IMG/VR virus record: IMGVR_UViG_3300028833_000067 | Coordinates: 96,001 to 160,000 of that record | Source: a virus | Taxonomy: Duplodnaviria > Caudoviricetes | DNA: 64,000 nt | Reading direction: 5' to 3' (one strand) | In this document: piece by piece, positions 44,249 through 62,380 of the stretch | Layout: every line of letters begins with the position of its first letter | Position numbering within the stretch: position 1 is the stretch's first letter | The notes under the pieces: model-generated | What the model was told of the DNA's origin: nothing | Databases searched by the model: none | The model's input: the letters and a program-made list of their open reading frames with translations, nothing else | Made by a program: the position numbers and the translations under genes

Positions 44249-44354
44249 TATTTGACTTTTTTCAAATTCCATGATATAATATTTACAGAAGATGAGGAAA
44301 GGAACTCACCTTCTATAAAATAATTTTTTTCATTACATAAGGAGGTAATGAGAT

Positions 44355-44728: not shown

Positions 44729-44991
44729 TGCCCTGCGGTCCGTGGCGGACAGACGGTCTCTAGGCTTAATTGGAGCCTTATATGGGGACATATAAGTGAA
44801 AACGTCGCTAAGTCGGTGAAGGCTTAACTGCTAATACCGAGCAAGGGATAAATCCTATGTGTAGAGACTTTACACGACGCATCTAGAACAGATGAAGATA
44901 AAGTCCAGACCACAATACGAAAGTAATGTGATATAGAAAACCGTGGCCTCTGAAGCAAACGAAGTTGGTTCGATTCCAACCAGGGCAGCCA
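44729..44991 (+). tRNA. amber suppressor tRNA (anticodon CUA, Gln-type acceptor); exons 44729-44761 and 44937-44991
   Basis: Acceptor TGCCCTG/CAGGGCA, G73, encoded CCA; spliced anticodon arm ACGGT-CT-CTA-AA-ACCGT; T arm GTTGG-TTCGATT-CCAAC. Confidence 0.85.
44762..44936 (+). mobile_element. group I self-splicing intron (175 nt, no ORF)
   Basis: Exon U / IGS GGAG P1, terminal G, P2 CTTATATG/CATATAAG, P3 CGTCG/CGACG, TCGGT/ACCGA, R element GTAGAGACT, S element GAAGATAAAGTCC, P8 CATCT/AGATG, GAAA-capped P9. Confidence 0.9.
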
Positions 44992-56309: not shown

Positions 56310-56615
56310 ATGCGTAATCGTGCAGAAAAGCGTCATAATGATTGGAAAAAGGCTATTCGTAAGCGTCGTATTGATCGAGAAACGCAAGGTACTTCTTTAT
56401 TTTCCCATGATACTTTTGAATATTTACATCAATATTCTAAAGGGCATTGGGCTTGTGGTTGTGGCATGTGTAAACGATATAATAAGACCAATAATCGTGG
56501 ACGGAAACGGAAAATTCATGGTAATTATGCGCCATCTAAAAATTGGTCAGTACAAGATGAACGCCGTATCGAAGAAATGGAAGATCAAATACTTGACAAT
56601 GAACAAGATTTCTGA
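56310..56615 (+). CDS. basic hypothetical protein (C-x-C-x-x-C)
   Basis: R.RAEKRH..WKKAIRKR...CGCGMC. Confidence 0.65.
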   Translation: MRNRAEKRHNDWKKAIRKRRIDRETQGTSLFSHDTFEYLHQYSKGHWACGCGMCKRYNKTNNRGRKRKIHGNYAPSKNWSVQDERRIEEMEDQILDNEQDF

Positions 56616-56730
56616 TATAATTATTATAGAAAAAGGGAGATAAGATATACATAAGAGGCAACTTGATAGAGTTTGTTGCAAAACATTAAATAGTAAACAT
56701 CTCCTTTCTCGCGGCGAAAGCCGCATTTAT

Positions 56731-56805
56731 CGGGGCGTAGCTCAGTTTGGCTAGAGCGGGTGGTTTGGGACCATCAGGTCGCGTGTTCGAATCGCGTCGC
56801 CCCGA
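56731..56805 (+). tRNA. tRNA-Pro(UGG)
   Basis: Canonical cloverleaf. Confidence 0.92.
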
Positions 56806-56809
56806 CTTA

Positions 56810-56875
56810 TAGGCCATTACAGCATAATCATATTTAAATGGAAAGAATAATTGCATATTATTAAAATGGCCTAGT
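56810..56875 (+). ncRNA. stem-CAGCA element E carrying Cys(GCA)-like anticodon arm
   Basis: TAGGCCATT/AATGGCCTA-GT, CAGCA, AATAA-TTGCATA-TTATT. Confidence 0.6.
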
Positions 56876-56991
56876 ATTTAAATATTCGCGCTTCGGCGTA
56901 AATAGATTACCGCGTTGGGATCCGTATAGGTGAAAAGCCCTATTTGAAAGAGGCGGAGTAGTATCCGCAACTCTTCCGCGGCGTTTTTAAT

Positions 56992-57142
56992 TTAGAACTG
57001 TAGGCTTAGAAGCAGCCATCAGCTAAAGAGTTTTCTTTTCTCCATGCGTGCGAAATGTATTATGGGCTTACAATTATTTGTCCTATAAGTATGATGTGCG
57101 GTGGGTAATAGAAAAAGAAATTTGGCGTAATAGCACATCTAA
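56992..57142 (+). ncRNA. 23S rRNA uL11-binding domain (H43-H44, GTPase-associated centre) mimic with ~90-nt insertion
   Basis: TGTAGGCTTAGAAGCAGCCATC..TAAAGAG[insert]GCGTAATAGC, closed by TTAGA/TCTAA. Confidence 0.8.
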
Positions 57143-57157
57143 TTTTAAGGAGTATTT

Positions 57158-57334
57158 ATGGAAGATAAACTACATGAAGTTTATAATTGTCTAAAAGTGA
57201 TAGATATGATGCTTTATAAACATGCTTATGAACCAGAAACGGTAAAAGGATTTGAATCTACCTCTGATATGGCTAAATACTATAGAGAATTTCTTCATGT
57301 TATTCTTCCAGAGGAATATCAATATCAAAAATGA
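57158..57334 (+). CDS. small hypothetical protein
   Basis: AAGGAG RBS. Confidence 0.45.
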   Translation: MEDKLHEVYNCLKVIDMMLYKHAYEPETVKGFESTSDMAKYYREFLHVILPEEYQYQK

Positions 57335-57417
57335 CACTATGGCGGAATGGTAACGCACCAGATTGCTAATCTGCGGTTACTTAAAAGGGTATGCACGTTC
57401 GAGCCGTGCTAGTGTCG
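57333..57417 (+). tRNA. tRNA-Ser(GCU)
   Basis: Class II cloverleaf, G73. Confidence 0.85.
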
Positions 57418-57420
57418 CTT

Positions 57421-59460: not shown

Positions 59461-59518
59461 ATTTGACTTTTAACTAAAATTAATGTATAATTTTTATATA
59501 AGAAAAGGAGTTGATATT

Positions 59519-59986
59519 ATGCCGATTTTGTATATTCTCTGCGGACCGAGTGGATGCGGAAAAACTACCTGGGCTATGAATTTTATGAAAGAACATGATA
59601 ATATTCATTATGTATCTCGGGATGAAATTCGTTTTGAATTGGTAAAACCCGATGAGAGTTATTTTTCGCGCGAAAAAGAAGTCTTTCGGTGCTTTGCTAA
59701 TACCATTCGGCATACTCTTGTTGATGGCTTTGATTGTATTGCCGACGCCACTCACTTAAATGAATTTTCGCGTCGTAAGCTAACACAAGCAATTGATATG
59801 TATTTTAAAGATTATGAAATTGTTTATGTTAGTTTTAATGTAAGCGCAGATACATGTATTGAACATAACGCCAATCGTGAAGGCAGGGCGAATGTGCCTG
59901 AAACTGTAATTCGTAATATGTGCCGTGATTTTAGAACTCCTTCTATTGAAGAAGATGAACGTGTGAAAGAGGTAATTGAAGTATGA
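59519..59986 (+). CDS. polynucleotide kinase-like P-loop protein (AAA_33)
   Basis: GPSGCGKTT, VSRDEIR, IADATHL, R.G..VPE.VI. Confidence 0.85.
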   Translation: MPILYILCGPSGCGKTTWAMNFMKEHDNIHYVSRDEIRFELVKPDESYFSREKEVFRCFANTIRHTLVDGFDCIADATHLNEFSRRKLTQAIDMYFKDYEIVYVSFNVSADTCIEHNANREGRANVPETVIRNMCRDFRTPSIEEDERVKEVIEV

Positions 59987-60603
59987 GCGAGATTTTCTTC
60001 ACGAGTGATACTCATTTCGGGCACCAGCCCGAGTTCCTTTGGAAGCCTAGAGGTTTTTCTTCTGTAGAAGAAATGGATGAAGCCATTATTGAAAATTGGA
60101 ATAAAGTAGTAAAACAAGGAGATATAGTATATCATCTTGGAGATACTATGCTCAACGATAATGTACATGGACTTGAATGTTTCAAGCGGTTAAATGGACA
60201 GATTTTTCTTATCTACGGAAACCATGATACTAATGCTAGAAATAATTTGCTTTTTACAGATGACCGTACCATACATAAAATGCTCGGCGGCTGGTATGCT
60301 TGGCTTATTAAATATGGTAAACTTTCCATTTACATGAGCCACTATCCCACGCTTACAAGCAATTATGATCAGAAACACTTCAGCCAGCATGTACTGAGCC
60401 TTCACGGGCACACTCATCAGAAAACAAATTGGCTTGACCCGAAAAACCCCTTTCTTTATCATGTTGGCCTAGACTCCCATAATAATACGCCAGTTCATAT
60501 TGATGAAGTAATCACAGATATTCGTCAGCGTTGGGAAGAAATTGGGCGTCTGCCAGTACCAGTTCAGCCGCAAGATACTTATCCATATACTTCTATTATT
60601 TGA
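59983..60603 (+). CDS. calcineurin-like metallophosphoesterase
   Basis: SDTHFGH, HLGD, GNHD, SHYP, HGHTH. Confidence 0.9.
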   Translation: MSEIFFTSDTHFGHQPEFLWKPRGFSSVEEMDEAIIENWNKVVKQGDIVYHLGDTMLNDNVHGLECFKRLNGQIFLIYGNHDTNARNNLLFTDDRTIHKMLGGWYAWLIKYGKLSIYMSHYPTLTSNYDQKHFSQHVLSLHGHTHQKTNWLDPKNPFLYHVGLDSHNNTPVHIDEVITDIRQRWEEIGRLPVPVQPQDTYPYTSII

Positions 60604-60889
60604 CTTTATTTAAATCTATGGTATAATAATTATGTTAGAAGATAATAAGTGCTTAATTGGGTCGCCATGTGAACATTGTATAAGTAGCTGTACATTTAGA
60701 ATAAGAAAGGATAAAAATATGGAACAAGATAAACATCCATGTGATAATTGTCCACCTCCGCATATGTGCGGTCATTGTACTTTATGTGAAGAATGGGAAA
60801 AAACTCATCCTAAAAAAGAAATCAAAGAAAAATATGAATGGGAATAACCTACGGTCTTGATAAAGACTAAGATGAAAAGGAGAATGAAA

Positions 60890-62380
60890 ATGAACAAACT
60901 ACTAAAGAATCTAAAAACTGAAACCAATTATACTCATACTGAAAATGGCGCCCTTACTCATAAGTCGACCCTTAATAAGGTGCTGGATATGTTTGCTATG
61001 GGCGGTTCTATGCGGAATCGCTCGGACGATGACGTTATTAATATGTTCAAGCAGGCATACGAAGAGAATAAGACTCTCGCACTAAAGTGCCTCTTCTATA
61101 TGCGCGATATACGTGGTGGCGCAGGCGAGAGACGTTTTTTCCGCATTTGCATCAAGTGGCTCGCTAATGAGTATCCAGAAGAGATGGAGCACCTAATTCC
61201 TTTCATTAGTGAATATGGCCGCTATGATGATCTTTTTGAGCTATTTGATACTCACTGCGAAGCCGCGATGATGGGATATATCTTTCATGTTCTTAATAAG
61301 AATGAAGATCATCTTATTTATAAATGGATGCCTTCGATCAACGCATCTTCTAAAGAAAGCAAGATTCGTGGGCGTAAATTCGTGCGTGAATTTGGCATGA
61401 CAGAGCGTCAGTATCGTCAGATGCTTTCTGAAGGTCGTAAAGCTTGCCATCTGGTTGAAACTCTTATGAGCCAGAATCAGTGGGATCAGATTGCGTTTGA
61501 TCATCTGCCTTCTCGCGCAGGACTTCTTTATAAGAATGCCTTCATGCGCCGTGAAGAAACTAAAGAGCGCTATGCTGAATTTATGTCCCGCAAGGACGCT
61601 AAAGTAAATGCAAGTGTATTGAATCCTGTCGAAATCGCGCACCAGATTCTCAATACATGGCGCACTCCCTCTGCTACTGAACGTCAGGCTTGGCAGAAGT
61701 ATTGGGATAATCTAAAAGATTATTACAATGGCCGCGAAGAGCCTGGCATCGCAGTAGTTGATGTAAGTGGTAGTATGAATGGCACTCCTATGGAAGCCGC
61801 AGTTTCTATGGGCGCGTATATTGCCGAACGTGGAAAAGGCCCGTTCCAGAACCACTTTATTACCTTTAGTGCTAATCCACAGCTTGTAGAATTCGAAGGC
61901 GTGGATATTTATGACAAGTTTAAGCGCGCAATAGAAGCAGACTGGGGACAGAATACGAACCTCGAAGCAGTATTTGATATGCTGCTGGAGACTGGTCTAC
62001 GTAATCATGTGCCAGACGCTGAAATGCCTAAAACAATTTACATATTTTCAGATATGGAATTTGATGACGGCTTGACTTGCGGCGCACGTACCACTGATCG
62101 TTGGGGACGCGTTCATTCGATGAATCGCTCACAGATTGATACACTCATTGAAGCCAAAACTAAAGAGTGGATGCGGGCAGGATATACAGTACCAAGAGTA
62201 ATCTTTTGGAATCTTGACGCTCGTCAGCCTAATATTCCAGCTATTGGCCCGGGGTTCTCTTATTGCAGTGGTTTCTCTATGAGTGCGCTTGAAGGAGTAC
62301 TCTCTGGTAAAGATGGCGTCGAAATGATGCGAACTGTACTAGAAGGAGAGCGCTATGCGCCAATTTCTAGTGTTCTATAA
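60890..62380 (+). CDS. DUF2828 / TROVE(Ro60)-like protein with C-terminal vWA domain
   Basis: TENGA, RDIRGG.GERR, YGR.DDL, KWMPS, VVDVSGSM (MIDAS), IFSDMEFD, VIFWNL, SGFS. Confidence 0.8.
   Translation: MNKLLKNLKTETNYTHTENGALTHKSTLNKVLDMFAMGGSMRNRSDDDVINMFKQAYEENKTLALKCLFYMRDIRGGAGERRFFRICIKWLANEYPEEMEHLIPFISEYGRYDDLFELFDTHCEAAMMGYIFHVLNKNEDHLIYKWMPSINASSKESKIRGRKFVREFGMTERQYRQMLSEGRKACHLVETLMSQNQWDQIAFDHLPSRAGLLYKNAFMRREETKERYAEFMSRKDAKVNASVLNPVEIAHQILNTWRTPSATERQAWQKYWDNLKDYYNGREEPGIAVVDVSGSMNGTPMEAAVSMGAYIAERGKGPFQNHFITFSANPQLVEFEGVDIYDKFKRAIEADWGQNTNLEAVFDMLLETGLRNHVPDAEMPKTIYIFSDMEFDDGLTCGARTTDRWGRVHSMNRSQIDTLIEAKTKEWMRAGYTVPRVIFWNLDARQPNIPAIGPGFSYCSGFSMSALEGVLSGKDGVEMMRTVLEGERYAPISSVL

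Follow-up and report, generated by a model that had tools for sequence, protein, structure and literature searches.

The GTPase-associated centre (GAC) of 23S rRNA is a 58-nt domain (Escherichia coli positions 1051-1108) that folds autonomously and binds both the ribosomal protein uL11 and thiostrepton. Ribosomes without uL11 fail to activate RelA, with the consequence that no stringent response follows, and they terminate poorly with release factor 1 (RF1) at UAG codons. An RNA resembling this centre is encoded by a tailed phage (Duplodnaviria; Caudoviricetes) in a 64,000-nt stretch of DNA, hereafter the window, which covers positions 96,001 to 160,000 of the IMG/VR virus record IMGVR_UViG_3300028833_000067, itself 176,887 bp long and rated 98% complete. 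Analysis at the sequence level confirmed a 151-nt structured non-coding RNA gene on the plus strand, at window positions 56992-57142 and among tRNA genes, and likewise confirmed that the two ends of the predicted RNA rebuild the 58-nt uL11-binding GAC.

Several described RNAs approach this element in logic or in genomic setting. The L10(L12)4 leader of rplJ and the L1 leader of rplKA are autoregulatory mRNA leaders that mimic rRNA binding sites, and we know of no leader that binds uL11. Like these leaders, the phage RNA is an off-ribosome imitation of the rRNA site of a ribosomal protein, which it would presumably bind; the leaders, however, are cis-acting 5' untranslated regions of cellular ribosomal-protein operons and usually loose structural mimics, whereas the phage RNA is flanked by tRNAs, nearly identical to rRNA and without any tie to a ribosomal-protein gene. 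The logic proposed below, in which an RNA imitates a nucleic-acid ligand and titrates its binder, is that of decoy RNAs, among them 6S RNA, which sequesters RNA polymerase, and CsrB/RsmZ, which sequester CsrA. It is also that of a phage pseudo-ToxI antitoxin mimic, an example of RNA mimicry used by phages against host systems (PMC3475682). None of these RNAs imitates an rRNA domain, and the partner of the GAC mimic is a predicted one. ROOL and GOLLD are large ornate non-coding RNAs of phages and bacteria that often lie beside tRNA genes (bioRxiv 10.1101/2024.12.08.627333). They are comparable to the present element as phage-associated structured RNAs in tRNA islands, but have no sequence or fold relation to it and no resemblance to rRNA, and their Rfam models miss the window.

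Architecture of the element

The original prediction, which was made from the letters of the window alone, had read this region as a close match to 23S rRNA positions ~1058-1103 that keeps the A1067 and A1095 loops, has a closing helix of its own and is flanked by no other rRNA. The sequence at 56992-57142 reads as quoted there, and each of these features was recovered. In a local alignment with E. coli rrlH, 23S positions 1058-1088 and the element share 28 of 31 nucleotides, and 57125-57137 is identical to E. coli 1091-1103 at 12 of 13 positions; an exact 18-mer of helix 43 (H43) has a chance expectation of only ~2e-6 per 64 kb. A1067 corresponds to 57008, A1095 to 57129, U1060 to 57001 and A1088 to 57029, so that both nucleotides of the U1060-A1088 contact are present in the window copy. 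In place of the top of helix 42 (H42), five Watson-Crick pairs join 56992-56996 to 57138-57142, and this closing helix covaries across the family described below. The hairpin of helix 44 (H44), with a GUAAUA loop and the G1091-C1100 and C1092-G1099 pairs, is found at 57125-57134. The window copy also has an A at 1061 (57002), and its 1057:1081 pair is C-G, where most members have A-U.

A helical insertion of ~90 nt had been predicted as well, at the H43/H44 junction. The insertion is real, an extended hairpin of 89 nt, but its place is different: together with a UUUG linker it interrupts the 5' strand of H44 between U1090 and G1091, and the junction 1082-1086 is intact. The two strands of the hairpin carry an internal-loop motif (~57048-57057 and ~57094-57101) that recurs in the divergent members L006, L018, L046, L057, L078, L153 and L211. 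Compared with E. coli 23S rRNA, the insert scores 19 against a shuffled mean of 18.9, and it is therefore not another piece of rRNA. Neither an Rfam intron match nor a catalytic intron core was detected in it when group I, group II and rRNA insertion elements were tested, and the window RNA has no hairpin resembling the sarcin-ricin loop (SRL). A pairing of GUGC in the insert with GCAC in H44, proposed by RNAalifold, was set aside, as all of its pairs are invariant and hence lend it no support.

The surroundings of the element contain no rRNA. When the whole record was compared with E. coli 23S rRNA by BLAST, the element was the sole match, and the Rfam 15 large-subunit (LSU) rRNA models, an alignment to which had been proposed as a check, gave no match anywhere in the window or the phage genome and left the element itself unmatched. 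Embedding in a full-length LSU rRNA, with its H42, H41 and H45 flanks, was not observed; the flanks are tRNA genes. Apart from tRNAs, Rfam 15 reported a single cow-rumen-4 RNA in the window, and a search of 56800-57340 against 4227 Rfam 15 models, with E up to 10, yielded only two chance-level matches to eukaryotic snoRNA and miRNA models; ROOL, GOLLD, tmRNA and the riboswitch families of Rfam 15 were all unmatched. The element does not have the appearance of a ribosomal-protein leader, as the 58-aa open reading frame (ORF) downstream is matched by neither Pfam nor PHROG and is missing from relatives. Full-text literature searches turned up no account of such an RNA. With no entry in Rfam 15 and no mention in the searchable literature, the RNA family to which the element belongs is apparently undescribed.

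Family, covariation and distribution

An exact scan of IMG/VR with the 18-nt H43 core returned at least 118 contigs, and the matches listed included one chance coding-region match (L036) and no true 23S rRNA. An independent 18-nt motif from the 3' half, which has no counterpart in true 23S rRNA, was found in at least 119 contigs, at least 88 of them new, and the 5' halves of these 88 carry the H43 core, mostly with 1-3 changes. The two scans together place the family in more than 200 IMG/VR contigs. Both halves, together with a complementary closing helix, could be matched up in 166 loci, which collapse to 136 distinct cores and have total element lengths of 86-418 nt (median 203).

Covariation was evaluated in a MAFFT alignment of 24 members from which the clade of the window was left out, using 500 shuffles and controls with slid partners. 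Observed pairing reached 96.6% of the paired cells versus 72.2% in the shuffles, and 124 cells with double changes were counted versus 34.7; none of the 500 shuffles attained the values observed, and only 31-55% of cells remained paired when partners were slid by 1-3 columns. Every pair of the closing helix covaries (83-100% paired, up to 6 pair types), as do 1057:1081 and 1058:1080, the latter with 6 pair types, and three basal pairs of the insert (100, 97 and 89% paired). The tertiary pair 1082:1086 switches among U-A, C-G and A-U, with 92% paired versus 56% in the shuffles. A covariance model, R1, built from the same 24 members and hence without the window clade, matched the window once, on the plus strand and over its full length (model positions 1-163), with 95.2 bits and an E-value of 2.6e-27. 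Because this full-length match was obtained with a model that had not seen the window clade, the window element belongs to the RNA family, and it displays all of the family hallmarks, namely its own closing helix, an insert after U1090, the UUUG linker and an A at 1101. R1 scored 96 bits on Pseudomonas phage pf16, 94 on Xanthomonas phage XacN1, 88 on Cronobacter phage GAP32 and 86 on Aeromonas phage 4_4572, versus 45-56 bits on true 23S rRNA from four genomes and 59.5 bits on the 23S fragment of Paenibacillus phage Pd_22F. As judged from these sequence patterns, the family is a large, phage-specific group of presumably stable non-coding RNAs whose structure is under selection.

The species 1 and 2 RNAs of phage T4 (rnaC and rnaD) are similar in being small stable RNAs at the end of a tRNA cluster and on the tRNA strand. 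They were rejected as family members: even with the filters switched off, R1 did not exceed 6.8 bits anywhere in the T4 tRNA region.

That the element might be a host rRNA fragment or an assembly chimera deserved attention, as genuine 23S fragments do occur in phage records. The Pd_22F match (L262, MZ092003.1, ~83.9-84.1 kb) is such a case; it proved to be true 23S rRNA with rRNA flanks and was discarded, and the deposited Pd_22F genome thus holds a genuine 23S stretch, either a host fragment or contamination. For the window element such an origin is exceedingly improbable. Neither its flanks nor the rest of the 177-kb record contain rRNA, and the element is set apart by its insert, the UUUG linker and a covarying closing helix of its own. 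More than 160 independent contigs share this architecture, as do cultured phages with complete genomes. The family evidence thereby refutes an origin by chimerism or rRNA fragmentation, in agreement with the original prediction.

Set beside the GAC of 23S rRNA, the family has the same helices and loop sequences, the same G/A1056.A1103, U1060.U1078 and U1060-A1088 interactions, the same G1071/C1072 base-triple partners and the same covariation at 1082:1086, and R1 also matches this part of true 23S rRNA, at 45-60 bits. It differs in being free-standing and closed by its own helix of 5-8 bp of free sequence, without H42 or the uL10 site. The mimics have an A in place of U1101 and a domain of 70-400 nt plus UUUG between 1090 and 1091, with a further insertion at 1078 in some of them, and their loop tips (1067-1070 and 1095-1097) are more variable. 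They are moreover encoded by phages among tRNA genes and ignore the idiosyncrasies of host 23S rRNA.

The inserted domains define several subclasses. In four large members (L035, L162, L220 and L095; 368-414 nt), covarying stems flank a hairpin that combines a GNRA loop with the bulged-G motif of the sarcin-ricin loop, and this motif occurs at 132 per Mb inside the elements versus 0.43 per Mb in 2.3 Mb of flanking sequence, an enrichment of ~300-fold. The same four members have further conserved blocks in common. A second hairpin is inserted at U1078 of H43 in L145, L163, L174, L191, L206, L223 and others. In L008, L027, L059, L067, L076 (pf16), L113, L153, L188 and L211, the insert contains a module located immediately ahead of the 3' strand of the basal helix and composed of a short hairpin with a GNRA-like loop, a covarying closing pair and a conserved purine-rich tail. 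At the other extreme, L011:3709-3775 is a compact member without an insert, self-closed and free of rRNA flanks, in which the H43 core and the H44 loop are as far apart as in rRNA.

The carrier records that were checked (n=49) span 35-519 kb and are mostly large phages, many with terminal repeats and rated complete. Among cultured phages, the pf16 copy lies between tRNA-Asn and tRNA-Pro, the XacN1 copy directly after a 2'-5' RNA ligase gene and the Aeromonas phage 4_4572 copy directly before tRNA-Met; GAP32 is a further cultured carrier. The predicted RNAs of pf16 and GAP32 measure ~190 and ~245 nt, respectively. Pectobacterium phage CBB is a candidate carrier, recognised through the exact 3'-half motif, the pairing of both halves and a BLAST match only. 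The stretch occupied by the element is unannotated in the pf16, GAP32, XacN1 and Aeromonas phage 4_4572 records. A BLAST search of a phage database with a 541-nt query returned no match, and only a 45-nt query covering the core, at E-values of up to 10, brought up the cultured carriers, along with contaminating true 23S sequences. Prokaryotic genomes were scanned with one genome per species (185,579 species) and a motif that excludes ordinary 23S rRNA. This gave 23 places, comprising 21 mimics and two true 23S sequences; the latter, L135 from an Armatimonadota metagenome-assembled genome (MAG) and L136 from an Acholeplasmataceae MAG, have an H44 that departs from the bacterial consensus and were discarded. 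Most of the mimics are carried by MAG contigs; others occur in Flintibacter muris and on the chromosome of an Acidithiobacillus. Comparison with the 23S rRNA of the same genome, made for Acidithiobacillus, Flintibacter and a Propionibacterium MAG, showed that the mimic is different at the variable positions, and the idea that mimics track their hosts by copying the host's own variable 23S positions was accordingly rejected.

Likely ligand and competing explanations

Conservation was calculated per column in the sample anchored on the opposite half, as a safeguard against selection bias. The invariant or nearly invariant nucleotides are G1055, G1059, U1060, G1062-C1064, U1066, G1071, C1072, A1073-C1075, A1077, U1083-A1085, G1087, A1088, G1091-U1094 and A1098-A1101. 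Within this set, U1083, A1084, A1085, G1087 and A1088 are invariant among in-register members, U1060-A1088 and G1071 reach 100% and C1072 99%, and the G1091-C1100 and C1092-G1099 pairs at least 99%; in the 5'-anchored sample, G1091, C1092, G1093, U1094, A1098, G1099 and C1100 are each at least 99% conserved. Variation is concentrated at A1067 (82%, otherwise G or C), G1068 (73%), A1070 (85%), A1095 (93%), A1096 (77%) and 1097 (50%). When the nucleotides were grouped according to published lists for the surface bound by the L11 C-terminal domain and for the pocket (PMC1802607), mean identity to E. coli was 96% for the former and 86% for the latter, which is made up of nucleotides at the loop tips in contact with thiostrepton, the L11 N-terminal domain and factors. 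An A at 1061, which stabilises the isolated domain (PMC1802607), is present in 22% of members, the window copy included. Overall, the conservation pattern fits an autonomous fold and a uL11-facing surface better than factor-contacting loop tips. A uL11 homologue was found in 0 of 49 carrier phages, while the control search recovered uL11 in 14 of 14 reference genomes; any uL11 bound by these RNAs would thus be that of the host.

The genetic code of the window phage is also relevant, and was judged by non-overlapping ORF cover, the six-frame ORF-sum metric being uninformative. With TAG as a sense codon, cover increases from 0.64 to 0.91, compared with only 0.68 for TGA as sense; the first 20 kb of the genome fits the standard code (cover 0.92). 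One ORF with 7 in-frame TAGs is matched by a tail-protein PHROG over residues 79-592 (E 1e-69), and an HNH endonuclease match spans another with 12. On this coding evidence, the window phage recodes TAG as a sense codon. The TAG-as-sense signal was noted at window positions 4631-44248 and elsewhere in the genome. In the same tRNA island, 12 kb upstream of the element, ARAGORN detected a split tRNA with a CUA anticodon, and removal of its 175-nt interruption allows the program to fold an 88-nt CUA tRNA with a long variable arm. The interruption aligns with the complete group I intron model at 36.5 bits and an E-value of 8.6e-8, a score below the Rfam gathering cut-off of 50. The relative L020 has a CUA tRNA less than 200 nt upstream of its element.

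The best reading of these data, to which we assign a probability of roughly 45%, is that the RNA is an off-ribosome decoy that binds host uL11. Its ends would fold as the 58-nt domain (top of H42, H43 and H44), with the variable domain spliced between U1090 and G1091. The RNA would be transcribed together with the adjacent tRNAs from a putative upstream promoter (Table 1), released by tRNA-processing enzymes and act away from the ribosome as a decoy of an rRNA site, whose likeliest ligand would be host uL11, held through its C-terminal domain. Titration of free or exchanging uL11 might then leave ribosomes short of the protein, and such ribosomes would neither activate RelA nor terminate efficiently with RF1 at UAG; in the TAG-recoding window phage, the RF1 effect would help the CUA suppressor tRNA. 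A role of L11 in RF1-dependent termination has been described (PMC1802607). The original prediction had likewise proposed a uL11 decoy, serving amber readthrough and/or muting of the stringent response. The presence of a free-standing, self-closed copy of the uL11-binding domain speaks for the decoy itself; the amber role, for reasons given below, finds no support as its general function.

Several observations weigh against a uL11 decoy. uL11 sits stably on mature ribosomes, so that free or exchanging protein would be the main target of a sponge, which may be too slow for one lytic cycle. The tertiary pair 1082:1086 is C.A in the window copy, compared with C-G in the 94%-identical relative L020. 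The second hairpin of some members is placed at U1078, inside the stretch facing the L11 C-terminal domain, and might hinder uL11, while the sarcin-ricin-like hairpin of another subfamily is not needed by uL11. The contrast between 96% and 86% identity is modest, and selection on the tertiary fold alone would also be expected to produce it. A still wider proposal holds that large phages reprogram host translation off the ribosome through an RNA-only imitation of the uL11/GTPase site, which drains uL11 or a docking factor, silences RelA-dependent stringent control and weakens RF1, and which in the window phage forms part of an RNA-only code switch together with the intron-gated CUA tRNA and the tRNA island; taken as a whole, this proposal is doubtful.

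Should the decoy reading prove correct, phages would possess a previously unrecognised route to control translation, a trans-acting copy of a functional rRNA centre, and the few phage non-coding RNAs whose target can be rationalised would be joined by a family that counts hundreds of members and is spread over large phages of many habitats. The RNA would also provide a natural reagent for the biology of uL11, the stringent response and release factors, establish a testable link of tRNA islands and RNA-repair genes with ribosome protection or takeover, and suggest how termination at a reassigned codon might be damped in recoded phages. As cultured carriers infect tractable hosts (Pseudomonas putida phage pf16, Cronobacter phage GAP32 and Aeromonas phage 4_4572), the question is directly testable.

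The same RNA could have a different partner. Munishkin and Wool reportedly observed in 1997 that isolated GAC and SRL oligoribonucleotides bind elongation factor G (EF-G) in vitro, and the RNA may bind a translational GTPase or another protein that docks at the GAC or SRL (EF-G, RF3, a RelA-type protein or another host or phage factor) rather than uL11 alone, thereby holding it off ribosomes or presenting it elsewhere. The sarcin-ricin-like hairpins of the four large members suggest that the family may imitate the whole factor-docking site, since GAC and SRL together form the GTPase binding site (PMC8661411). Such a factor decoy is nevertheless rather unlikely, given that the window RNA and most small members lack an SRL-like hairpin, that the factor-touching nucleotides A1067 and A1095-1097 are the least conserved part of the core, and that a phage which brings its own tRNAs has no clear reason to sequester elongation factors. 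Another role would be that of a bait in counter-defence, in which GAC-directed weapons of the host or of competitors, such as ADP-ribosyltransferase toxins like Tre23, rRNA nucleases, methylases or thiopeptides, are drawn to the RNA as a competing substrate or sponge, so that the ribosomes needed by the phage are spared. Tre23 ADP-ribosylates 23S rRNA within 1095-1098 of H44 (PMC8661411), which makes the GAC a real target of bacterial toxins. Countermeasures against RNA damage are abundant near the element: a kinase and a phosphoesterase in the window, kinase-phosphatase-ligase and Macro-domain genes near other members, and the 2'-5' RNA ligase beside the XacN1 copy. RNA-repair genes, however, generally accompany phage tRNA islands, and nucleotides under attack should be strictly kept in a bait, yet 1095-1097 vary. 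Literature searches yielded no anti-phage system aimed at the GAC, nor is any known to us, and the bait explanation is accordingly considered unlikely.

A dedicated part in a genetic-code switch, in which the RNA would reduce RF1 activity at UAG and let the amber suppressor tRNA prevail in late genes, would suit the window phage well, with its recoded TAG, its intron-split CUA tRNA and the nearby CUA tRNA of L020. Across the family it fares poorly. A TAG-recoding signal was detected in only 2 of 116 carrier loci of at least 8 kb, CUA tRNAs occur in 9 of 136 carriers within the available stretch, a count that has no baseline for comparison, and the cultured carriers pf16, GAP32, XacN1 and Aeromonas phage 4_4572 have ordinary, dense GenBank coding-sequence annotation around the element. 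Most carriers thus use the standard code, and the amber readthrough of the original prediction fits locally and fails family-wide. These frequencies imply that a code switch is at most a lineage-specific benefit of a more general function, and as the primary role of the family it is very unlikely. It is also conceivable that the RNA is no decoy, and is instead a cis element, either the leader of the ORF that follows it or a processing signal of the tRNA transcript, or a stable scaffold for a functional insert. A Shine-Dalgarno-like motif and an ATG lie within 16 nt after the element, and the inserts are long and structured, specific to their lineages and furnished with recurring motifs. But this ORF, although preceded by a strong Shine-Dalgarno motif, is contained in a 181-bp insertion that is peculiar to the window genome and absent from the relatives L020 and L022, where tRNA-Ser follows the element directly, an arrangement that speaks against a leader. 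Family-wide, the element usually has a tRNA on either side, and near-identity to rRNA at unpaired nucleotides that face the protein is more than a scaffold alone would require. A cis-acting or scaffolding role is thus decidedly improbable.

Transcriptional setting and neighbouring genes

The coordinates of the element, its parts and the neighbouring features are listed in Table 1. Among the 136 distinct carriers, all 415 tRNA genes within 2 kb of the element are on its strand and none is on the opposite strand; a tRNA ends within 10 nt upstream in 26 carriers and starts within 10 nt downstream in 20. In the window, the order is putative promoter, tRNA-Pro, a 185-nt spacer, the element, the 58-codon ORF, tRNA-Ser and tRNA-Gln. 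The spacer looks structured, with nested hairpins and a terminal U-run, and has no Rfam match; L022 has a similar spacing, and in L020 its place is taken by tRNA-Ser. Intrinsic terminators were predicted downstream of the element in 8 of 134 cases versus 2 in the antisense control, a weak signal.

Table 1. Features of the window discussed in the text (window coordinates; 23S numbering as in E. coli)
Feature	Position	Strand	Remarks
Whole GAC-mimic RNA gene	56992..57142	+	151 nt; covariance-model envelope 56989-57145
Closing helix, 5' strand	56992..56996	+	= 23S 1051-1055, top of H42; pairs with 57138-57142
H43 equivalent with A1067 loop	56998..57022	+	= 1057-1081; U1060.U1078 mismatch kept
Junction 1082-1086 and lower H44 5' strand (G1087, A1088, G1089, U1090)	57023..57031	+	
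Lineage-variable inserted hairpin	57032..57120	+	89 nt; conserved internal-loop motif on both strands
UUUG linker, insert back to upper H44	57121..57124	+	88-97% conserved (5'-anchored sample)
Upper H44 hairpin with A1095 loop (1091-1100), then A1101, C1102, A1103	57125..57137	+	
Closing helix, 3' strand	57138..57142	+	= 23S 1104-1108
cow-rumen-4 RNA	44285-44351	+	57.6 bits, above cut-off
CUA-anticodon tRNA	44729-44991	+	ARAGORN; long variable arm, split in anticodon loop
Putative sigma-70-type consensus promoter	56593..56621	+	12/12 with TG extension; pattern match only
tRNA-Pro(UGG), upstream neighbour	56731..56806	+	
Spacer	56807-56991	+	185 nt
ORF downstream of element	57158-57334	+	58 codons; no Pfam/PHROG match
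tRNA-Ser(GCU), downstream neighbour	57333..57418	+	
Polynucleotide-kinase-type P-loop protein	59483-59986	+	downstream of tRNA island
Calcineurin-like phosphoesterase	59983-60603	+	
DUF2828/DUF7788 protein	60857-62380	+	507 aa; PHROG 'RNA-binding protein', E 7e-115

No protein is a common neighbour of the family: in an all-against-all BLASTP comparison of 4,894 ORFs from 205 loci, the top cluster was present at 16 of 205. The largest of these clusters comprise homing endonucleases, a phosphoesterase, a polynucleotide kinase/ligase, a Macro-domain protein and RNA ligases, with Macro-domain genes near the element in 9 loci from 7 lineages. In the window, the polynucleotide-kinase-type protein, the phosphoesterase and the DUF2828/DUF7788 protein make up an RNA-repair-like set downstream of the tRNA island. 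The cow-rumen-4 RNA lies directly upstream of the split suppressor tRNA.

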